64,000 bases of DNA from an uncultured archaeon (GCA_964534325.1 CAZHOR010000003.1:16664-80663), one strand, 5' to 3'. Numbered from the stretch's first letter, positions 10,272 to 18,445 are shown. Translations and numbers: made by a program. Notes: generated by a model from the sequence alone, not told the origin.

Positions 10272-10390
10272 AGTTATCTCTCTTTGCTGTATCCATGCTT
10301 ATTATATCTTTTCCGGGTTACGGGGGTTAGGGTTGTGGGGTTAAATAGGATCGAAGTTGAGATCATGCACTGTTCACTCATAAAGAAAAT

Positions 10391-10400
10391 TTTTTATAAT
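10391..10400 (+). promoter_or_regulatory. TATA box for a probably leaderless radC-like transcript
   Basis: tttttataat is centred about 26 nt upstream of the ATG at 10422, and no SD-like sequence lies in between. Confidence 0.4.
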
Positions 10401-10421
10401 CAACTATTAGTTTTACAAAAG

Positions 10422-11372
10422 ATGAAATTTGTTATAAAGGATAGTGGTGGATTTGGACTTCAGGAGCGGGAGGAAATAATCGATTTTCTGGTGGAGAACA
10501 GAGCATATCCCGTATGCAGGAATGGTAAGGTCTTTTTCACCGGAAAAAAGAAAACACCTCTATTCAACCAGTATAAGGATCACATCATCCACAAACTGGA
10601 GCTCAATACAGAAGAGGACTGCAAAGAAGTAAGGGAGATAGTTAAAGAGGAAATAAATAAATCCAGAACTACTAGACCTATCAAGGATTGGGTGGAGGAT
10701 GAAAGGCCCAGGGAAATGCTGATAAAGTTCGGGCCTCAACAGCTCTCCTCAGCCAAATTGCTGGCAGTTATCCTCAGGGTAGGCAACGAGGGAGTGAGTG
10801 CAGAGGACCTTGCGAGGAATCTGTTGAACCATTTTGGCAGTCTGAGGGCGGTGGATGAAGCTTCGATCAACCAGCTATGCCAGATACAGGGAATCGGTAT
10901 GGCCAAAGCCGCCCAGATCAAGGCGGCAATAGAGACAGGTAAACGGATGATGAGAGAAGGAGCAGAGAAAAGAGACAAGGTCCGCAATGTGAGCGATGTG
11001 GTGGATTACGTGTTCGATTACTACTCTCCCTACCTCAAGGACGCCAAAAAAGAATTCTTTAACATAATATTGCTTGACAGCGGTAACAAGCCCATAAAGA
11101 ATCTGGAGCTGAGCAAGGGTGGTTTAGAGACCAACGTGGTTGACGTGAGAGAAGTGGTCAGAGAAAGCTCAAAGGAAGGGGCTGCATCCATAATCCTGGT
11201 GCACAACCATCCCAGTGGAGAGCCAGAACCGTCAGGCGAGGACATAAACGTCACCAAAAGAATCGTGGAAGCCTGCAACCTGGTGGGGGTCAGGGTTCTG
11301 GACCATATAATCCTGGGAAGGGATAGAGATAATTACACCAGCTTTCTGGAGAAAGGATTGCTGGGGAATTGA
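10422..11372 (+). CDS. radC: RadC-like JAB/MPN domain protein (UPF0758) with an about 90-aa N-terminal extension
   Basis: HhH region (LLAVILRVGNEGVSAEDLARNLLNHFGSLRAV...IQGIGMAKAAQIKAA) and JAMM motif HNHPSGEPEPSGEDINVTKR. The track ORF starts at 10284 but overlaps the divergent gene. ATG 10422 is preferred. Confidence 0.8.
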   Translation: MKFVIKDSGGFGLQEREEIIDFLVENRAYPVCRNGKVFFTGKKKTPLFNQYKDHIIHKLELNTEEDCKEVREIVKEEINKSRTTRPIKDWVEDERPREMLIKFGPQQLSSAKLLAVILRVGNEGVSAEDLARNLLNHFGSLRAVDEASINQLCQIQGIGMAKAAQIKAAIETGKRMMREGAEKRDKVRNVSDVVDYVFDYYSPYLKDAKKEFFNIILLDSGNKPIKNLELSKGGLETNVVDVREVVRESSKEGAASIILVHNHPSGEPEPSGEDINVTKRIVEACNLVGVRVLDHIILGRDRDNYTSFLEKGLLGN

Positions 11373-11386
11373 TCTTTACTTTTATT

Positions 11387-12229
11387 TCATTTCAAGGCTT
11401 TGGCGATGAGGTCGGCTACGCTGATCTCGCTCACATTCCTTTCGATCGTGTCGGTAGCGATGATCTCTGATACGCCGGCTGTATAGAGCCTGTTCAAGGC
11501 GTAGCTGGCGAAGACAGGATGGACACACCCCACCTTTATCTCCTGTGCTCCTTGCTCCAGAAGGATCTTGGTGGCCTCCACTATTGTCCCTCCAGTAGAG
11601 ATGATGTCGTCAATGAGAACCGCTCTCTTCCCCTTTACGTCCATGTTCTTGGTCTCCATGACAACATGCTCCGCATCGATCCTCTTCTTCTCCAGGTAAT
11701 CGAAATCACAGCCAGCACTTTGAGCAGCCAGCTTAACGCAATCGTAGGCACCAACATCGGGAGAGATCATGCAGATATCTACTCCCCTGAAATGCTCTCC
11801 CAGAACCGGCATGGCATCAACTTCCTCAATATTCTTGAACTGCTTCTTTGACTCTTCACTATGGACATTAACTGATAAAACCCTGTCAGTATAATCCTCG
11901 ATCATTCTGGCAACCACTTTAATGCTCAGAGCTTCTCCCTCCATGAATCTCCTGTCCTGTCGAGCGTAACCGAGATAGGGGACCACGGCCGTAACGTTTT
12001 TACCTTCAAGAGCCTCTAAAGCCAGCATGAGAAAAATGAGATCATCGTTGGAGTTAATGCTCTGAATCACCACAGCATCCTGGCTATTACATTCCACACG
12101 GGTATAAAGCTCTCCGTCAGGGAATTTCTTGTACCTCGACTGAGCAACCTTCGAATTTAATCTATCTGCAACCCTGCTAGCCAGTAAAGGAGATGCAGGA
12201 CCGGCAACAACCTCCATATTTTTCCCCAA
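11387..12229 (-). CDS. prs: Ribose-phosphate pyrophosphokinase (PRPP synthetase)
   Basis: FPDGELYTRV, YLGYARQDRRF and the PRPP-binding loop AVLIDDIISTGGT. Confidence 0.9.
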   Translation of the reverse strand: MGKNMEVVAGPASPLLASRVADRLNSKVAQSRYKKFPDGELYTRVECNSQDAVVIQSINSNDDLIFLMLALEALEGKNVTAVVPYLGYARQDRRFMEGEALSIKVVARMIEDYTDRVLSVNVHSEESKKQFKNIEEVDAMPVLGEHFRGVDICMISPDVGAYDCVKLAAQSAGCDFDYLEKKRIDAEHVVMETKNMDVKGKRAVLIDDIISTGGTIVEATKILLEQGAQEIKVGCVHPVFASYALNRLYTAGVSEIIATDTIERNVSEISVADLIAKALK

Positions 12230-12286: not shown

Positions 12287-12991
12287 TCAACTAAGTTTCC
12301 CCTCCTGTATCACTTCAGGACTTATGTTTCCCTCATGGAAAGCGCTGGCGATCAGGACACCCTCAAAACCCATATCGTTTAGCTCCACAATATCTTCCAT
12401 TCTCCTTACTCCACCACCAGCGTATAGGGGATTGTCAGATACCTCGACGGCTTCACCGAAAATACTCTGGTCCAGTGAGAGAGTACCCACTCTGGAGAGG
12501 GTCAATATTATGACACCCTCCAAGTCGAATGAGTTCAACCACCCCAGAGCATCTTTCCACTCAGGGAAGCTGTTTGAAGCATCCAGGAACTCGTCCTTTA
12601 TATCCAGGCTGACATAACGAACATTAGCTGAGTCCTCTTCAAGCTGGCGGAGATTGAAGGTCTCGCTCCCCACCACTCCATCAAATTGCATATCTTCAAG
12701 CTCAAGTTCAGCAGGCTCTTTAAATCCGCAATCCGCAATCAAATGCTCTACTTTGCCGGATATGCTGTTGAGTATATCTGTGTTATCTCCAGCCCCCATT
12801 ATCCGGTCCAGATCCGCTGCATAGACGTACCTGGGTTCGACCTGTTCTATGACCATTTGAGGGCTACTGGTATCCAGTAACCTGCTGGAGAGGTGCACCG
12901 GCCGATACTTTTCTCTTTCCCCCTTAACTGCCCTCACAACCTCTTTGTGGAGGAGATCGATAACGAAATATAACTTCATAAATCCAACCAC
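12287..12991 (-). CDS. HisA/HisF-family (beta/alpha)8 barrel protein, ProFAR-isomerase-related
   Basis: Start likely MKLYFVIDLL. C-terminal GGGVR...GFEGVLIASAFHEG phosphate-binding motifs. It resembles the methanogen HisA-related family of uncertain function. Confidence 0.65.
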   Translation of the reverse strand: MVGFMKLYFVIDLLHKEVVRAVKGEREKYRPVHLSSRLLDTSSPQMVIEQVEPRYVYAADLDRIMGAGDNTDILNSISGKVEHLIADCGFKEPAELELEDMQFDGVVGSETFNLRQLEEDSANVRYVSLDIKDEFLDASNSFPEWKDALGWLNSFDLEGVIILTLSRVGTLSLDQSIFGEAVEVSDNPLYAGGGVRRMEDIVELNDMGFEGVLIASAFHEGNISPEVIQEGKLS

Positions 12992-13037: not shown

Positions 13038-13451
13038 CTATCTTCTAAACAGAATAACAGCAATAAAACCTCCCATTAGACACAAAACAGCCGTGAAACC
13101 CGAAATAACTGGTATGAACCCCGGTACCTCTGAATAGGATATTCCTGCAAAGTCGCTGGCGTATTCAAGCACAGCTTCGATCTCCTCATCAGTCAGTTTC
13201 TCGTCATAGGAAGGCATTATCTGAACCCCGTTTTTTACAGTGTTCATGAGATCCTTTTTTGTTGTAGATTTCCAGAAAGAGGGGTCGGAAAAATTTGCAT
13301 TTCTTATACCCATCCCGTCTTCAGCATGACACCGTTCACAATTTTCTTCATAGAGCTGGGCTCCATTCTGTGCCGTGGCGGGTGTCGCGACAGTCAGAAC
13401 TAATAGAACCAGTAATCCCCCAAATATTAGTTTACCAATTCTGGACAACAT
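13038..13451 (-). CDS. Monoheme class-I c-type cytochrome with Sec signal peptide and PGF-CTERM anchor
   Basis: Signal peptide ...VATPATAQ. A single CERCH haem motif is encoded at 13326-13340. A distal Met context GVQIMPSYDEKLTDEEIEAVLEY is present. The C-terminus PGFIPVISGFTAVLCLMGGFIAVILFRR (13041-13124) has PGF, a TM helix and a basic tail. Confidence 0.8.
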   Translation of the reverse strand: MLSRIGKLIFGGLLVLLVLTVATPATAQNGAQLYEENCERCHAEDGMGIRNANFSDPSFWKSTTKKDLMNTVKNGVQIMPSYDEKLTDEEIEAVLEYASDFAGISYSEVPGFIPVISGFTAVLCLMGGFIAVILFRR

Positions 13452-13578
13452 TTGCTTTTACGTCTATGTGATTTTATTTGAAATTTTCTTTCCCTTCTCT
13501 TTTTTTCTGATGTAGGGAGTCGCTTACTTTCTGGGGACAGGAAACATCTTAATAAACCACATCTCCATCCCACCTCAC

Positions 13579-14865
13579 ATGATAATTGCCCGGGGTAAAT
13601 CAGATTCAAAACAAAAACTGGTGGGAAAGATTCTGGAAGCGAACGGTAAGTCTTCCTCGCGTTTTGGGAACATAATAAAGTCCAGTCCTGCTTTTATGGT
13701 GATAGAGGACCCCGGGGAAGCAGGTAGAGTTGACCACGATTTCTGGAATTTTTGTGGGGAGACATACGTCACCAGAATTGGTGATCTGGTCAGTATTGCA
13801 GCTGAGAGACTGAAGAGCTCTCCGTTTACCAGAAGGATTTCCATTCCGGCGTGGAAGCCGGAGGACCACCTGTGCGATAATCCACCTGCTCTGACGGAGA
13901 TCAGTTTTCTTCAGCTGGAGGGAAAGCTGCACGCTACAGCTTATATCAGGAGTCTGGATGCCCTCAACTACTATAACTTCAACTTCGACCTCATAAACCA
14001 CATCTTACAGCAGGTCGTGGAGGATACTGGACATGAGTTTGAGAAGGGAACTATGGCCATGCTTGTCGCCATACCGCACATATACGCCAGGGACTACGGT
14101 AGAGCACAAGAGATGAGCAGAAGCTCTGAAGAGGTCTTCGGGGTGACTGAATATGGTGCTCACCTGGTAGAGGACTACTTCTCCACGGCCTGGCACTCCT
14201 CCCTGGAGGCCATATACCATCAGGGGAAGAAGAAGGAAACGGAGTGGGGTGAGCTGTTTGAAGGTCAGGCGGAGAGCATGTTCATCCACAGATTGTTCGT
14301 GGAAGTCAAAGACCCTTATGAGATGCAGCTCCACGATAAGGCTCCATTCACCAGGAATTACGGCATCGATTACGCCCACGATTACGTTATTTGCGCCAAA
14401 TACATTGATTCAGAGGTCAGGGAGAACATACTGAAAGAAGAGGAGGCTTACACGTATGCGGAGAGAGCTCGTTACTGTCAGTATGACGAACAGCATATTG
14501 ATCAGCTCTACACTGTTATAAACAAGCTGAAGCTGGACAGGAACAGAAGGGACTGTTACGTGGGTGTCTCAAGGCAGTGGGACCTGGAGTCGGATGAGCC
14601 GCCCTGTCTCAGGGGATACCAGTTCTGCGGCGAAAACAACGATGAGCTCAGTGGTTTATTCTATATGCGGTCCAATGACGCATACGGGGCCATGCACGCC
14701 AACATGTTCGCATTCTCTACCCTCACCCAGTACGTGACCGAATTAATCGGGCTCAAAAGACATAGATACTACCATTTTGCCCTGGACGCTCACATATATT
14801 CCGAGTTCCTGGAGGCGGTAGAAGACCTCCTCAAACCCGAGACGCCCACCTACAGCAGCGGTTAG
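13579..14865 (+). CDS. Tandem-duplicated thymidylate synthase (ThyA)-like protein (fused pseudo-dimer)
   Basis: N-half: FTRRISIPAWKPED, NPPALTEISF (Ala codon 13888-13890 where the catalytic Cys is expected), IRSLDALNYYNFN, IPHIY. C-half: YTYAERARY, IDQLYTVINKL, RNRRDCYVGV, EPPCLRGYQF (Cys codon 14605-14607), MRSNDAYGAMHAN, LDAHIY. Confidence 0.7.
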   Translation: MIIARGKSDSKQKLVGKILEANGKSSSRFGNIIKSSPAFMVIEDPGEAGRVDHDFWNFCGETYVTRIGDLVSIAAERLKSSPFTRRISIPAWKPEDHLCDNPPALTEISFLQLEGKLHATAYIRSLDALNYYNFNFDLINHILQQVVEDTGHEFEKGTMAMLVAIPHIYARDYGRAQEMSRSSEEVFGVTEYGAHLVEDYFSTAWHSSLEAIYHQGKKKETEWGELFEGQAESMFIHRLFVEVKDPYEMQLHDKAPFTRNYGIDYAHDYVICAKYIDSEVRENILKEEEAYTYAERARYCQYDEQHIDQLYTVINKLKLDRNRRDCYVGVSRQWDLESDEPPCLRGYQFCGENNDELSGLFYMRSNDAYGAMHANMFAFSTLTQYVTELIGLKRHRYYHFALDAHIYSEFLEAVEDLLKPETPTYSSG

Positions 14866-15129
14866 AAAAGCTATTGTATATTCCATTTCGATGTCAATTT
14901 TTGAAGGCCTTTTTACTGAAGGCAGTAAAGCCAAAACCAGTATCAGCAAACCTACCGACCCGTAAATGAGTTGTAGGGGTGGTTGAGGGTGGTAACCTAT
15001 TATCAATATCTCTACTCCCACCCATCCAATGAGTACAGCCCCTACGATCAGGGCACTAGACCTCCCAAAACGCCACTCAATCCCTGAAAGAACATCAGCA
15101 ATACAAGGATATAGACAGTTAAGGGTCAT
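14743..15129 (-). CDS. Hypothetical small membrane protein (doubtful)
   Basis: 128-aa ORF with two plausible TM helices (SALIVGAVLIGWVGVEILIIGY, LQLIYGSVGLLILVLALLP). Its 3' 123 nt overlap the convergent thyA-like gene. Confidence 0.3.
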   Translation of the reverse strand: MTLNCLYPCIADVLSGIEWRFGRSSALIVGAVLIGWVGVEILIIGYHPQPPLQLIYGSVGLLILVLALLPSVKRPSKIDIEMEYTIAFLTAAVGGRLGFEEVFYRLQELGIYVSVQGKMVVSMSFEPD

Positions 15130-15435: not shown

Positions 15436-16338
15436 ATGTGTGGAATAGTTGGACTTCTTTATAAGAAGAGGAATCCCAGGATGGGAGAAATCATCATAGA
15501 TATGATGCAGCAGCTTCAGCATCGGGGTAAAGATGGTGCTGGAGTGGCTATTTATGGCGATACTCAATTCTCTGAAAATGAATATGTAATGAAACTGGAG
15601 ATAACCAAGTTCGGGAGAAGAAAGAAGGTTGAGGAGATGCTGCACTCCAGTTGTGAAGTTGAGGAGACCAAAGTGGTCAGGGAAGGTAAGAATTTTACCA
15701 TACTTGATCTGCGCATAAAGATCACGGAGTTCAAGGAATTGAGGAATCTTCTGCTTGAGCTTCAGACCATCGACGGCGTGTCGGTCCTGAGTGCCGGTAA
15801 ATTCGAGATGATGAAGGATTTGGGAACAGTCTCTCTGGTGGACAGCATATACGGGATATCCGGTAAGGGTGGGACTCACGGTATCGGGCACATCCGCTTT
15901 TCTACGGAAAGTGGGGTGGACAGGTATCATGCTCACCCCTTTCAGAGCTTCGTCTATCCCGACGTTACGGTTGTTCATAACGGGCAGATAACCAATTACT
16001 GGAAAATAAGGAATTCTCTGGAAGCAAAAGGACACACATTCACCACCGACAACGATACGGAATGCATTGTGCATTTCGTGGCTGATATGCTTCTTGAAGG
16101 CAACACCTTAGAGGAAGCGCTGGATAACTCCGTTAACAAGCTGGACGGACCTTTTTCGTTCTTGATATCCACAGCGAGCTCCATAGGGATTGCCAAGGAC
16201 AAATTGGGGCTGAGGCCTGCTCTGGTCGCTGAAGATAGTGATGTCTTTGCGGTAGCAAGTGAAGAGGTGGCTCTGGAGCCATTAGGTCTGGATACAGAAT
16301 ATCTTTCACCGGGGGAAATAAGAGTATTCGAGAGATAA
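15436..16338 (+). CDS. Archaeal glutamate synthase, class-II glutamine amidotransferase subunit/domain
   Basis: N-terminal nucleophile MCGIVG. RFSTES and HNGQITNY motifs. Confidence 0.85.
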   Translation: MCGIVGLLYKKRNPRMGEIIIDMMQQLQHRGKDGAGVAIYGDTQFSENEYVMKLEITKFGRRKKVEEMLHSSCEVEETKVVREGKNFTILDLRIKITEFKELRNLLLELQTIDGVSVLSAGKFEMMKDLGTVSLVDSIYGISGKGGTHGIGHIRFSTESGVDRYHAHPFQSFVYPDVTVVHNGQITNYWKIRNSLEAKGHTFTTDNDTECIVHFVADMLLEGNTLEEALDNSVNKLDGPFSFLISTASSIGIAKDKLGLRPALVAEDSDVFAVASEEVALEPLGLDTEYLSPGEIRVFER

Positions 16339-16339
16339 T

Positions 16340-17011
16340 ATGGAGCTTGATTGTCAGGGTTTAACGGTTCGAGAAATAAACAGGAGCGTTCGAAAAGCAG
16401 TTGAAGCTGGAGAAAAGGAATTGACCATCCTCAACCCGGGAGCAAAGCACTACTTGTGTGCAGGACTTGAAGAAGAGGTAGATATTAACTTGAAGGGGAG
16501 TGTAGGCTATTTTGCTGCCACCATGATCCACGGACCGCGAGTAGTTATCGAAAAGAATGCTGGCTGGTTTGCAGCCGATAACATGACCAGGGGATATGTA
16601 GATGTAAGAGGGAATTCCGGTGACGGTACCGGACAGGGAATATACGGTGGAACTATCGTAGTGAGAGGGAATGCCGGGGCCAGGACAGGAGAGATCATGA
16701 AAGATGGGACCATAATTATTGGCGGTAATTCCGAGTTCATGACCGGCCTCTACATGATGGGCGGCTCCATTATTGTTCTGGGTGATTTGGGGGAAATGGG
16801 TGGAGAATCCATTGTGAGAGGCACAATCTACGTGAGAGGAGACGTAAAAACCCTGGGAAAGAATGCCAGAATAACCGAAGTGGACCAGGACGACGAGCAG
16901 TGGCTGGAAAAAACCCTTTCACAAAACGATTTTCCCCCGGACACTTCAAAGTTCAGGAAAATAACTCCCGTGAGCAAGAGATTTTACTATGCTCCCACGG
17001 AGGAAGGATAG
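16340..17011 (+). CDS. Archaeal glutamate synthase, GXGXG-repeat (GltB C-terminal beta-helix) subunit/domain
   Basis: Repeated G-x-G motifs (RGNSGDGTGQGIYGGTIVVRGNAGARTGEIMKDGTIIIGGN...). Tightly coupled to the flanking genes. Confidence 0.85.
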   Translation: MELDCQGLTVREINRSVRKAVEAGEKELTILNPGAKHYLCAGLEEEVDINLKGSVGYFAATMIHGPRVVIEKNAGWFAADNMTRGYVDVRGNSGDGTGQGIYGGTIVVRGNAGARTGEIMKDGTIIIGGNSEFMTGLYMMGGSIIVLGDLGEMGGESIVRGTIYVRGDVKTLGKNARITEVDQDDEQWLEKTLSQNDFPPDTSKFRKITPVSKRFYYAPTEEG

Positions 17012-18445
17012 ATGTTCCAGATAGCTATAGACAGGGATCAGTGCGAGAAATGCCTCAGATGCGTCCGCTACTGCCCCACCGGAGCACTTGACAGAGAAGG
17101 GAAGAGGCCGGTAGTTAAGAACCAATCTGAATGTGTGGGTTGCGGTAATTGTGTTGACGTTTGTCCCGCAGAAGCCATCCAGGTCTCAGGAACATCTGAT
17201 ATGGAGGATAGAGGTATTTGGGGTAGAGCTGTTGTAAGGGATATCCGGAAGAAAGCTGAAGTGGGAACCTACATAGTGAGGGGCACGGGAGCTACTCGAC
17301 CTCTCCCCCACTTTGACGAGCTGGTTATTCTACCGGCTCAGACCTCCAGGCCCTCTATAGATAAGTACCGGGAGCCCTGCAACACTCAGGTAGTTCTGGG
17401 AGACCGATATGCAGAAAACCCCCTTGTCATCGACACGCCCATCATGGGGGCCGCCATGAGCTTTGGTGCGGTCAGCCTGGAGACCAAGGTGGCCATCGCC
17501 AAAGGAACCGCCATGTCGGGAACTGCCACCAACACCGGCGAAGGAGGCATGCATCCGGAGGAAAGAAAACACTCTAAACTCCTCATCGCCCAATATGCCA
17601 GCGGGAGGTTCGGAATATCTGCAAGAACTCTTAACACCGCTGATGCTGTAGAGATAAAGATAGGACAGGGAGCCAAGGCAGGAATGGGAGGCCACCTCCT
17701 GGGAGAAAAGGTTTCGGAAGAGATAGCCCGGATCAGAGGAATCCCTCCCGGAACCGACGCCCTCTCACCCTCCAGACATATGGACATTATCGGTCCAGAA
17801 GACCTTGCCATGAAAATAGAGCAGTTAAGGGAGATCACCGACTGGAAGATCCCCATTGCCGTGAAATATTCTGCGGGGAGAGTTACTGATGATGTGAAAA
17901 TAGCTGCAAAAGCCGGGGCGGATATAGTTGTGGTTGACGGCATGCAGGGTGGAACGGGAGCAACTCCCGATGTTGTCGCCGAGCATGCAGGAATACCCAC
18001 TGTTGGCGCCATCGTTCAGGCAGATGAGGCCTTAAGAGAGCTGAAATTGAGGAGCGAGGTCAGTCTGGTGGCAGCCGGAGGGATTAGAAGCGGTGCTGAT
18101 GTGGCCAAAGCTCTGGCCCTCGGTGCTGATGCTGTCCAGATGGGGACAGGAATGCTCATCGCACTGGGGTGTACGGTGTGCAGGCAGTGCTATCTGGGGA
18201 AGTGCCCCATGGGTATCGCCACCCAGGATGAGAAGCTCCGCAGGAGACTGAAACCCGATAAAGGCAGCATTAAGGTGCACAATTACATCAAGGCCATGAC
18301 AGAGGAACTCAAAATTCTTACTCAGCAGGCGGGCAAGACCGACGTGAGAAACCTGGAGCTGGAGGACTTGAGATCATTGAACATAAACATATCGGCAATA
18401 ACCGGAACCGACCTCATGGGATGGGATAAACCCTTCAGGTTTTAA
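17012..18445 (+). CDS. Archaeal glutamate synthase, FMN/Fe-S domain subunit with N-terminal 2x[4Fe-4S] ferredoxin
   Basis: CEKCLRCVRYCP and CVGCGNCVDVCP ferredoxin motifs, then a TIM-barrel region (IKIGQGAKAGMGGHLLG, VVDGMQGGTGA, GGIRSGADVAKALALGAD) and CxxCxxxxC for the 3Fe/4Fe cluster. Confidence 0.9.
   Translation: MFQIAIDRDQCEKCLRCVRYCPTGALDREGKRPVVKNQSECVGCGNCVDVCPAEAIQVSGTSDMEDRGIWGRAVVRDIRKKAEVGTYIVRGTGATRPLPHFDELVILPAQTSRPSIDKYREPCNTQVVLGDRYAENPLVIDTPIMGAAMSFGAVSLETKVAIAKGTAMSGTATNTGEGGMHPEERKHSKLLIAQYASGRFGISARTLNTADAVEIKIGQGAKAGMGGHLLGEKVSEEIARIRGIPPGTDALSPSRHMDIIGPEDLAMKIEQLREITDWKIPIAVKYSAGRVTDDVKIAAKAGADIVVVDGMQGGTGATPDVVAEHAGIPTVGAIVQADEALRELKLRSEVSLVAAGGIRSGADVAKALALGADAVQMGTGMLIALGCTVCRQCYLGKCPMGIATQDEKLRRRLKPDKGSIKVHNYIKAMTEELKILTQQAGKTDVRNLELEDLRSLNINISAITGTDLMGWDKPFRF

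Follow-up and report, generated by a model that had tools for sequence, protein, structure and literature searches.

Thymidylate synthase (ThyA), a major drug target, is known from textbooks as an enzyme that obligately forms a homodimer. In canonical ThyA the arginine pair R126/R127 crosses the dimer interface and binds the phosphate of deoxyuridine monophosphate (dUMP) in the site of the partner subunit. Here we describe a gene, referred to below as the tandem thyA, at positions 13579-14865 of the plus strand of a 64,000-nucleotide stretch of DNA from an uncultured archaeon (GCA_964534325.1, CAZHOR010000003.1:16664-80663; this whole stretch is called the window). Judging from its sequence, the gene probably encodes a single-chain, pseudo-heterodimeric thymidylate synthase of the ThyA family, which would have one active site instead of the usual two.

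ThyA has been reported to use one site at a time, a behaviour termed half-the-sites reactivity (PMC5981203). This behaviour has been studied with an engineered heterodimer of wild-type and R126E-R127E E. coli ThyA protomers, in which, according to PMC5981203 (citing Maley et al. 1995), the mutant protomer holds the only functional site. Among published systems, the idea that comes nearest is that of the tandem thymidine kinase 1 pseudodimer of trypanosomes (Trypanosoma brucei) and Giardia, which is duplicated and fused and has one active part (PMC9190010). Like the protein described here, it belongs to the supply of deoxythymidine monophosphate (dTMP), and a normally oligomeric enzyme has become a fused pseudodimer with a single active part; unlike our protein, it is a eukaryotic enzyme whose fold and chemistry are not related to those of ThyA, and its subunits do not share active sites in the manner of ThyA. 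Full-text literature searches on tandem, fused or pseudodimeric ThyA, on Archaeoglobus thymidylate synthase and on MJ0757 returned no description of the fused architecture, and the databases name the fused proteins simply 'thymidylate synthase'.

The open reading frame (ORF) of the tandem thyA is complete, with 428 codons plus a stop and no interruption, and its product is 100% identical to a database protein (P0001). A preliminary description of the locus had proposed that it comprises two consecutive ThyA-like halves, and expected a profile search to return two ThyA domains. Indeed, two matches to Pfam PF00303 were obtained: residues 1-195 scored 35.5 bits (E 7.8e-9) and residues 196-428 scored 68.6 bits (E 6.1e-19), with 100.8 bits for the whole protein, so that the whole protein and each half separately pass the gathering score of 24.3 for membership of the ThyA superfamily. 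Among the NCBIfam models, the whole protein scored best against TIGR03283, the model of the methanogen-type thymidylate synthase, with 134 bits. The C-half alone matched positions 9-196 of the 201 in this profile, with 96.9 bits, and the match of the N-half was confined to the second half of the profile.

We compared the two halves with each other, as the preliminary description had suggested. Direct BLASTP detected little similarity (25% identity in a stretch of 84 residues, E 0.009), which argues that the duplication that gave rise to the halves is old. The relationship became clear in an hhalign comparison of the N-half profile against the C-half profile, each built from 28 family members, which gave 97.6% probability (E 4.4e-12) over 176 aligned columns and spanned nearly the full length of both halves. 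By this alignment the C-half has about 45 residues more than the N-half, in two insertions; in both the sequence alignment and hhalign, about 45 residues are missing from the N-half ahead of the YxxR motif. By sequence, the N-half alone also matched solved ThyA chains, namely Enterococcus ThyA (E 3e-8).

On this basis the protein can be divided into three parts. The N-half (residues 1-179; 13579-14115, plus strand) is a degenerate ThyA fold without the nucleophilic cysteine, as judged by Pfam, hhalign, AF2 and Foldseek. It is followed by a linker of residues 180-192, SRSSEEVFGVTEY (14116-14154, plus strand), in which E185 and G188 are conserved. The C-half (residues 193-428; 14155-14862, plus strand) is a complete catalytic domain of the methanogen type. 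Single-domain archaeal relatives have 210-235 residues, so the tandem gene is about twice the usual size, in agreement with the preliminary description. That description had also allowed for two genes merged near position 14150, and no sign of this was seen: the linker contains neither a stop nor a frameshift.

The predicted structures were confident for both halves. The AF2 model of the full-length protein had a mean predicted local distance difference test score (pLDDT) of 93.7 and a predicted template modelling score (pTM) of 0.93, with the same order of strands and helices in the two halves. Modelled alone, the N-half gave a pLDDT of 90.9, and Foldseek placed this isolated half among ThyA-superfamily structures with TMq, the TM-score normalised to the query, of 0.66-0.80 (0.80 to 9iqu and about 0.7 to many ThyA chains). 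Foldseek matches had a probability of 1.00 for many chains of ThyA, deoxycytidine monophosphate (dCMP) hydroxymethylase and MilA, in agreement with a ThyA fold. The loop that carries the arginine pair of the N-half (residues 81-90) had a pLDDT of 80 in the isolated half and 90 in the full model, a weak structural hint. From homology, the high pTM and this small rise in confidence, we infer that the halves pack against each other like the subunits of a ThyA dimer.

We mapped the catalytic residues onto E. coli ThyA (identical to PDB 1aob) in a MAFFT alignment of the halves with 11 single-domain archaeal ThyAs. The C-half carries the nucleophile, C343 (equivalent to E. coli C146), in the motif EPPCLRGYQF (E340-P-P-C343 at 14596-14607, with E340 at 14596-14598 and the cysteine at 14605-14607). 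It also carries R364-S365-N-D367 and N375 (14668-14703; E. coli R166/S167/D169 and N177) and H405-I-Y407 (14791-14799; H207/Y209), all of them invariant, as well as YTYAERAR (14449-14472), where Y293 aligns with E. coli Y94 and where Y291, Y293 and R296 are invariant. The further motifs RNRRD, MRSNDAYGAMHAN and DAHIY are present. In the N-half, the position of C146 is occupied by Ala104 (13888-13890, motif NPPALTEISF). The N-half nevertheless retains R85-R86 (13831-13836; E. coli R126/R127), the arginine pair that would serve the phosphate site of the partner, in the motif FTRRISIPAW. It also has Y63 (E. coli Y94), R124-S125-L-D127 (13948-13959; R166/S167/D169, motif IRSLDAL), in which the arginine and the serine are invariant despite the site having no cysteine, N135 (N177), and the invariant H167-I-Y169 (14077-14085; H207/Y209, motif PHIY). 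All of these features lie on the plus strand.

The motifs and coordinates quoted in the preliminary description were all correct, including those of the cysteine at 14605-14607 and of the alanine at 13888-13890. Its statement that the C-half keeps the full catalytic set holds for the cysteine and the other motifs; it does not hold for the arginine pair. In RNRRD the equivalents of R126/R127 are R324 and D325 (14548-14553), and not R323 and R324, so the motif contains only one arginine to be donated and the C-half lacks a full Arg-Arg pair. The register of the hhalign alignment agrees with this mapping. The pair directed from the C-half towards the N-half pocket is, thus, broken.

This asymmetry is conserved in the family. 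Among 107 relatives of 410-457 residues collected in a word-indexed search, the nucleophilic cysteine of the C-half was present in 107 of 107, while the corresponding position of the N-half was Ala in 100, Ser in 4 and Thr in 2, and never Cys (106 were scored, one N-truncated protein being left out). Only the C-half, thus, has the nucleophile needed for catalysis. Cys99, which we considered as an alternative nucleophile of the N-half, was rejected, as it is not conserved. The arginine-pair position of the C-half was RD in 102 of the 107, RN in 2, RT in 1 and RR in 2. R85/R86 of the N-half, on the other hand, were invariant in all 28 aligned sequences and in 22 of 22 further ones. In the alignment of 28 sequences all catalytic residues of the C-half were invariant, as were R85, R86, R124, S125, H167 and Y169 of the N-half. 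The ligands of the dUMP phosphate (R364/S365 of the C-half together with R85/R86 of the N-half), the uracil-specifying N375, D367 and the ribose ligands H405 and Y407 are, therefore, all present and invariant. Mean pairwise identity was 46% for N-halves and 65% for C-halves, with the N-half lower in 325 of 325 pairs; by this measure the N-half evolves faster than the C-half. With the arginine pair kept in the N-to-C direction and broken in the C-to-N direction, and with the cysteine in the C-half only, the pattern is what one would expect if the sole working site were the pocket of the C-half completed by the N-half. The proposal of a covalent pseudo-dimer, in which the N-half acts as the arginine-donating partner, is supported by these residues and by the ThyA folds of both halves.

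The comparison with described enzymes can now be made more precise. Like methanogen-type short ThyAs (210-235 residues, one domain), the C-half aligns over nearly the whole TIGR03283 model and has the motifs YTY-x-R, (S/T)RR, PPC, RS-x-D, N and H-x-Y; unlike them, the fused protein is twice as long, with two domains in one chain, of which the N-domain is without the cysteine and without the lobe before YxxR, and the C-domain is without the second donated arginine. With canonical homodimeric ThyAs (E. coli, L. casei, human) it has in common the fold, the catalytic residues of the C-half and, apparently, the rule that the arginine pair comes from the partner. The subunits of the canonical enzymes, however, are identical and separate and either site can react, whereas the asymmetry of the fused protein is encoded in its sequence and covalently fixed; much of the folate-binding elaboration of the bacterial and eukaryotic enzymes is also missing from it. 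The fused protein also resembles the engineered heterodimers, where one protomer gives the arginine pair and the other gives the pocket and the nucleophile, leaving one site per dimer, and where the charge-reversal mutation is mimicked by the natural change to R324-D325. Those heterodimers, however, are separate laboratory chains that can re-assort, in contrast to the archaeal protein, which is natural, fused and conserved in at least two archaeal classes.

We surveyed the phylogenetic distribution of the fused form. Species-representative genomes that carry it number 67, with the labels Archaeoglobi, Archaeoglobales, Archaeoglobaceae, Geoglobus, Ferroglobus or 'uncultured archaeon'. Isolates with complete genomes have it too, namely Archaeoglobus sulfaticallidus, A. 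veneficus and Geoglobus acetivorans. When 1.84 billion cluster representatives were searched exhaustively with HMMER, only four matches fell below E 1e-30, beyond which the scores dropped sharply to single-domain proteins of 210-235 residues. The preliminary description had allowed for a sequencing error behind the long ORF; more broadly, sequencing or assembly could have wrongly joined two neighbouring thyA-like genes. The unusual length of the ORF is the sole basis for such an explanation, for which we found no support, and we give it practically no credence: the frame is uninterrupted, the linker has its conserved E185 and G188, and the same architecture recurs in the 107 relatives, in complete isolate genomes and in 67 species genomes, so that its distribution over independent assemblies excludes an error of this kind.

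A sister group of 440-490 residues was found in Syntropharchaeia, Syntrophoarchaeum, Alkanophagales and one metagenome-assembled genome (MAG) labelled Methanocellales (P0107, P0108, P0264-P0279). In these proteins the cysteine position of the N-half is Ser, Ala or Thr, often Ser, and the arginine pair of the C-half is mostly intact (RR, RQ or RK); the clade, thus, appears to be a less decayed stage of the same fusion. In a neighbour-joining tree of the halves with bootstrap, a simple distance tree, the C-halves of Archaeoglobi, of P0106 and of the Syntropharchaeia type formed one clade (bootstrap 96), and so did their N-halves (bootstrap 73), which indicates that a single fusion is likely to have taken place before these lineages split. 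Very divergent tandem ThyA proteins of 414-427 residues from an Aenigmarchaeota MAG (P0234 and P0257, RLJ01209.1) have the same polarity, with Val at the cysteine position of the N-half (KPNVFIEF) and EIPCPRY in the C-half. The tree leaves the placement of the Aenigmarchaeota protein, as well as the sisterhood of N- and C-halves, without resolution. We also noted, outside the window, a different ThyA fusion of 440-500 residues (P0121, P0131, P0148 and P0157; P0130 is partial), which consists of an MtrA-like domain (PF04208), Thymidylat_synt and a PterinBD-DUF4346 domain (PF14251) and physically couples a ThyA-like domain to methanopterin-related domains.

The residues of the C-half are informative about its probable substrate. 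According to specificity rules for the equivalents of N177 and D169, summarised in PMC13326640, Asn at the former specifies uracil, i.e. dUMP rather than dCMP. N375 and D367 fit these rules, and the signatures of dCMP and 5-hydroxy enzymes are absent; the two residues, thus, suggest dUMP and not dCMP as the substrate, and speak against a flavin-dependent 5-hydroxylase. A. fulgidus has been placed with methanogens among the carriers of a ThyA-type thymidylate synthase (PMC5654409). Within the 64-kb window a motif scan found no second ThyA or ThyX outside 13579-14865, and neither did tblastn with three queries, namely the ThyA of E. coli, a single-domain ThyA of archaeal origin and the ThyX of T. 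maritima. Taken together, these three observations suggest, as the simplest reading, that the fused protein serves these organisms as their housekeeping thymidylate synthase.

A history that would account for these observations starts with a short methanogen-type ThyA that was anciently duplicated and fused, so that two subunits became joined head to tail. The C-half would have retained the set needed for catalysis: C343; R364, S365, H405 and Y407 as ligands of phosphate and ribose; D367; and N375, which specifies uracil. The N-half would have lost the nucleophile (now Ala104), together with about 45 residues from the lobe that precedes YxxR, and kept the fold and R85-R86; this arginine pair may complete the one active site, that of the C-half. 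The opposite pair, aimed at the dead pocket of the N-half, could then have decayed to R324-D325. The outcome would be a hard-wired one-site enzyme, the natural counterpart of the engineered one-site ThyA heterodimers, and its most likely role would be to make dTMP from dUMP as a housekeeping enzyme of Archaeoglobi; the one-carbon (C1) donor would probably be of the methanopterin type. What the analysis shows is that there are two ThyA folds, which key residues each of them has, how well this pattern is conserved, and in which taxa it occurs.

Several points weigh against this proposal. Dimer-like packing of the halves, donation of arginines from N to C, with R85/R86 of the N-half reaching the C343 pocket of the C-half, and the substrate, product and cofactor are all inferences from the observations above. 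Unlike the methanogen-type enzymes, the whole protein, at 134 bits, does not reach the curated cut-off of TIGR03283 (174.55 bits). The invariance of R124, S125, H167, Y169 and Y63 in the N-half is more than a purely structural partner seems to need. At the position of L143, three residues before the cysteine, where a bulky hydrophobic residue is said to keep water out and so to favour methylation over hydroxymethylation, the protein has E340, and 105 of the 107 relatives have Glu or Asp. The search for a second ThyA or ThyX covers the window only. Finally, archaeal thymidylate synthases have been described as poorly characterised experimentally (PMC9931769, PMC9012536), and the literature that we searched contained no assay of an enzyme of this fused kind.

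We examined the genes around the tandem thyA in the window and in seven other contexts, among which none of the neighbours is conserved throughout. The preliminary description had placed the gene beside a HisA-related barrel and a phosphoribosyl pyrophosphate (PRPP) synthetase. Both genes are real: the HisA/HisF-related gene lies at 12287-12991 (TIGR00734, 177.5 bits against a cut-off of 179.85) and the PRPP synthetase gene at 11387-12229. However, both are on the minus strand, opposite to thyA, and a c-type cytochrome gene stands between them and thyA. This gene (13038-13451, minus strand), found also in an 85%-identical relative, encodes a mono-haem protein of 137 residues with a CERCH motif (PF13442) and a hydrophobic C-terminal tail. 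With these two neighbours in view, the preliminary description had considered a C1 transfer that does not serve dTMP synthesis. Only the 85%-identical relative has the same arrangement, which is absent from the other six contexts, so that the suggestion was not supported, and nothing in the gene context favours a role outside nucleotide metabolism. In A. sulfaticallidus the neighbours are nitroreductase and HD-domain genes; in the A. neptunius, P0106 and P0107 contexts they are unrelated genes. In Geoglobus acetivorans (contig L006, 2749-4732) genes for a uracil/xanthine permease and uracil phosphoribosyltransferase are divergent from, and upstream of, the tandem thyA, a gene order that links it to pyrimidine salvage in that genome.

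Other features of the locus were also noted. A TATA-like element, TTAATAAA (13549-13556, plus strand), lies 23 nucleotides 5' of the thyA ATG and may be an archaeal promoter; its distance from the ATG suggests a transcript with a short leader or none. The genes for a split archaeal glutamate synthase (amidotransferase, GXGXG and FMN/Fe-S parts) follow thyA both in the window (15436-18445, plus strand) and in A. veneficus (contig L003, 7346-10804), in a different order; this is the sole neighbourhood common beyond close relatives. A hydrophobic ORF of 128 residues (14743-15129, minus strand), which matched no family, shares 123 nucleotides with the 3' end of thyA, and its start or its status as a gene is uncertain. 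Upstream of the cytochrome c gene, the segment 8077-12991 (minus strand) contains nucleotide and ribose-phosphate genes: a PurP-like formate-dependent FAICAR synthetase (below cut-off), ribose 1,5-bisphosphate isomerase (TIGR00511), the PRPP synthetase and the HisA/HisF-related gene. A RadC-like ORF (UPF0758_N and RadC JAB; 10284-11372, plus strand) with a TTG start is about 45 codons longer than the 317-residue gene in a related contig (L008), and its true start is probably further downstream.

The architecture described above could also belong to a protein in which the pocket of the N-half binds a nucleotide (dUMP, dTMP or other) as a non-catalytic site of regulation or cooperativity, and would be a fixed version of the 'idle' subunit of half-the-sites ThyA. 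Besides the invariant R124/S125, H167/Y169 and Y63, this explanation would account for D127, which is Asp in 24 of 28 sequences, and for N135, which is Asn or Asp in 28 of 28. In the Syntropharchaeia type, moreover, the mostly intact arginine pair of the C-half means that all phosphate ligands of the N-half pocket are present, and the N-half often has Ser at the cysteine position. In the Archaeoglobi type, however, the second incoming arginine is Asp in 102 of 107, which should disfavour binding of a phosphate; the lobe before the YxxR motif has been deleted; and the N-half evolves faster than the C-half. The invariant residues could, speculatively, be structural contacts, such as a salt bridge between R124 and D325, and in Archaeoglobi D325 may, by pairing with R124, plug the pocket of the N-half. 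On balance we consider a nucleotide-binding N-half unlikely, and it is similarly doubtful that this is an obligate one-site enzyme whose degenerate half both binds nucleotide and communicates with the C-half. If it were so, evolution would have made half-the-sites behaviour permanent, with the catalytic and the regulatory subunit in a single chain. The Arg-Arg proteins of Syntropharchaeia, which have Ser at the cysteine position, and the Arg-Asp proteins of Archaeoglobi would then represent successive stages of decay.

A different doubt concerns the reaction itself. An acidic residue at the L143 position is associated with hydroxymethylases (PMC13326640), and the protein falls under the NCBIfam equivalog cut-offs, as would suit a dUMP hydroxymethylase or another C5-modifying enzyme of the ThyA superfamily, possibly linked to pterin metabolism; the HisA/HisF-related and PRPP synthetase genes nearby were also compatible with such a role. 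However, the acidic residue occurs in most single-domain archaeal ThyAs as well, and is, therefore, a question of the whole archaeal clade and not of the fusion. N375 and D367 mark uracil and go without dCMP or 5-hydroxy signatures, the neighbours that might hint at another role are confined to one close relative, and the Geoglobus gene adjoins uracil permease and uracil phosphoribosyltransferase genes. The organisms also require a source of dTMP, and A. fulgidus is counted as a carrier of the ThyA type (PMC5654409). We regard an enzyme other than thymidylate synthase as very unlikely here, and a single-chain thymidylate synthase with one site in the C-half remains the explanation that we favour.

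If so, the fused protein would be a well-supported example of how a homodimeric enzyme can become a single chain with a catalytic half and a pseudoenzyme half, of real though moderate interest pending enzymology. Automated annotation as 'thymidylate synthase' conceals this two-domain architecture. Studies of half-the-sites reactivity have so far relied on engineered heterodimers, which are prone to re-assort; a natural, thermostable and covalent one-site enzyme would offer a clean system in which to ask if the second subunit is only an arginine donor and scaffold, or an allosteric partner. Since dTMP synthesis in methanopterin-using archaea is biochemically unresolved, any tractable member of the family would be useful. 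For the family as a whole, the tandem thyA may provide a clear example of the passage from a homodimer to a fused pseudo-heterodimer with a pseudoenzyme half, with intermediate stages apparently preserved in related lineages.

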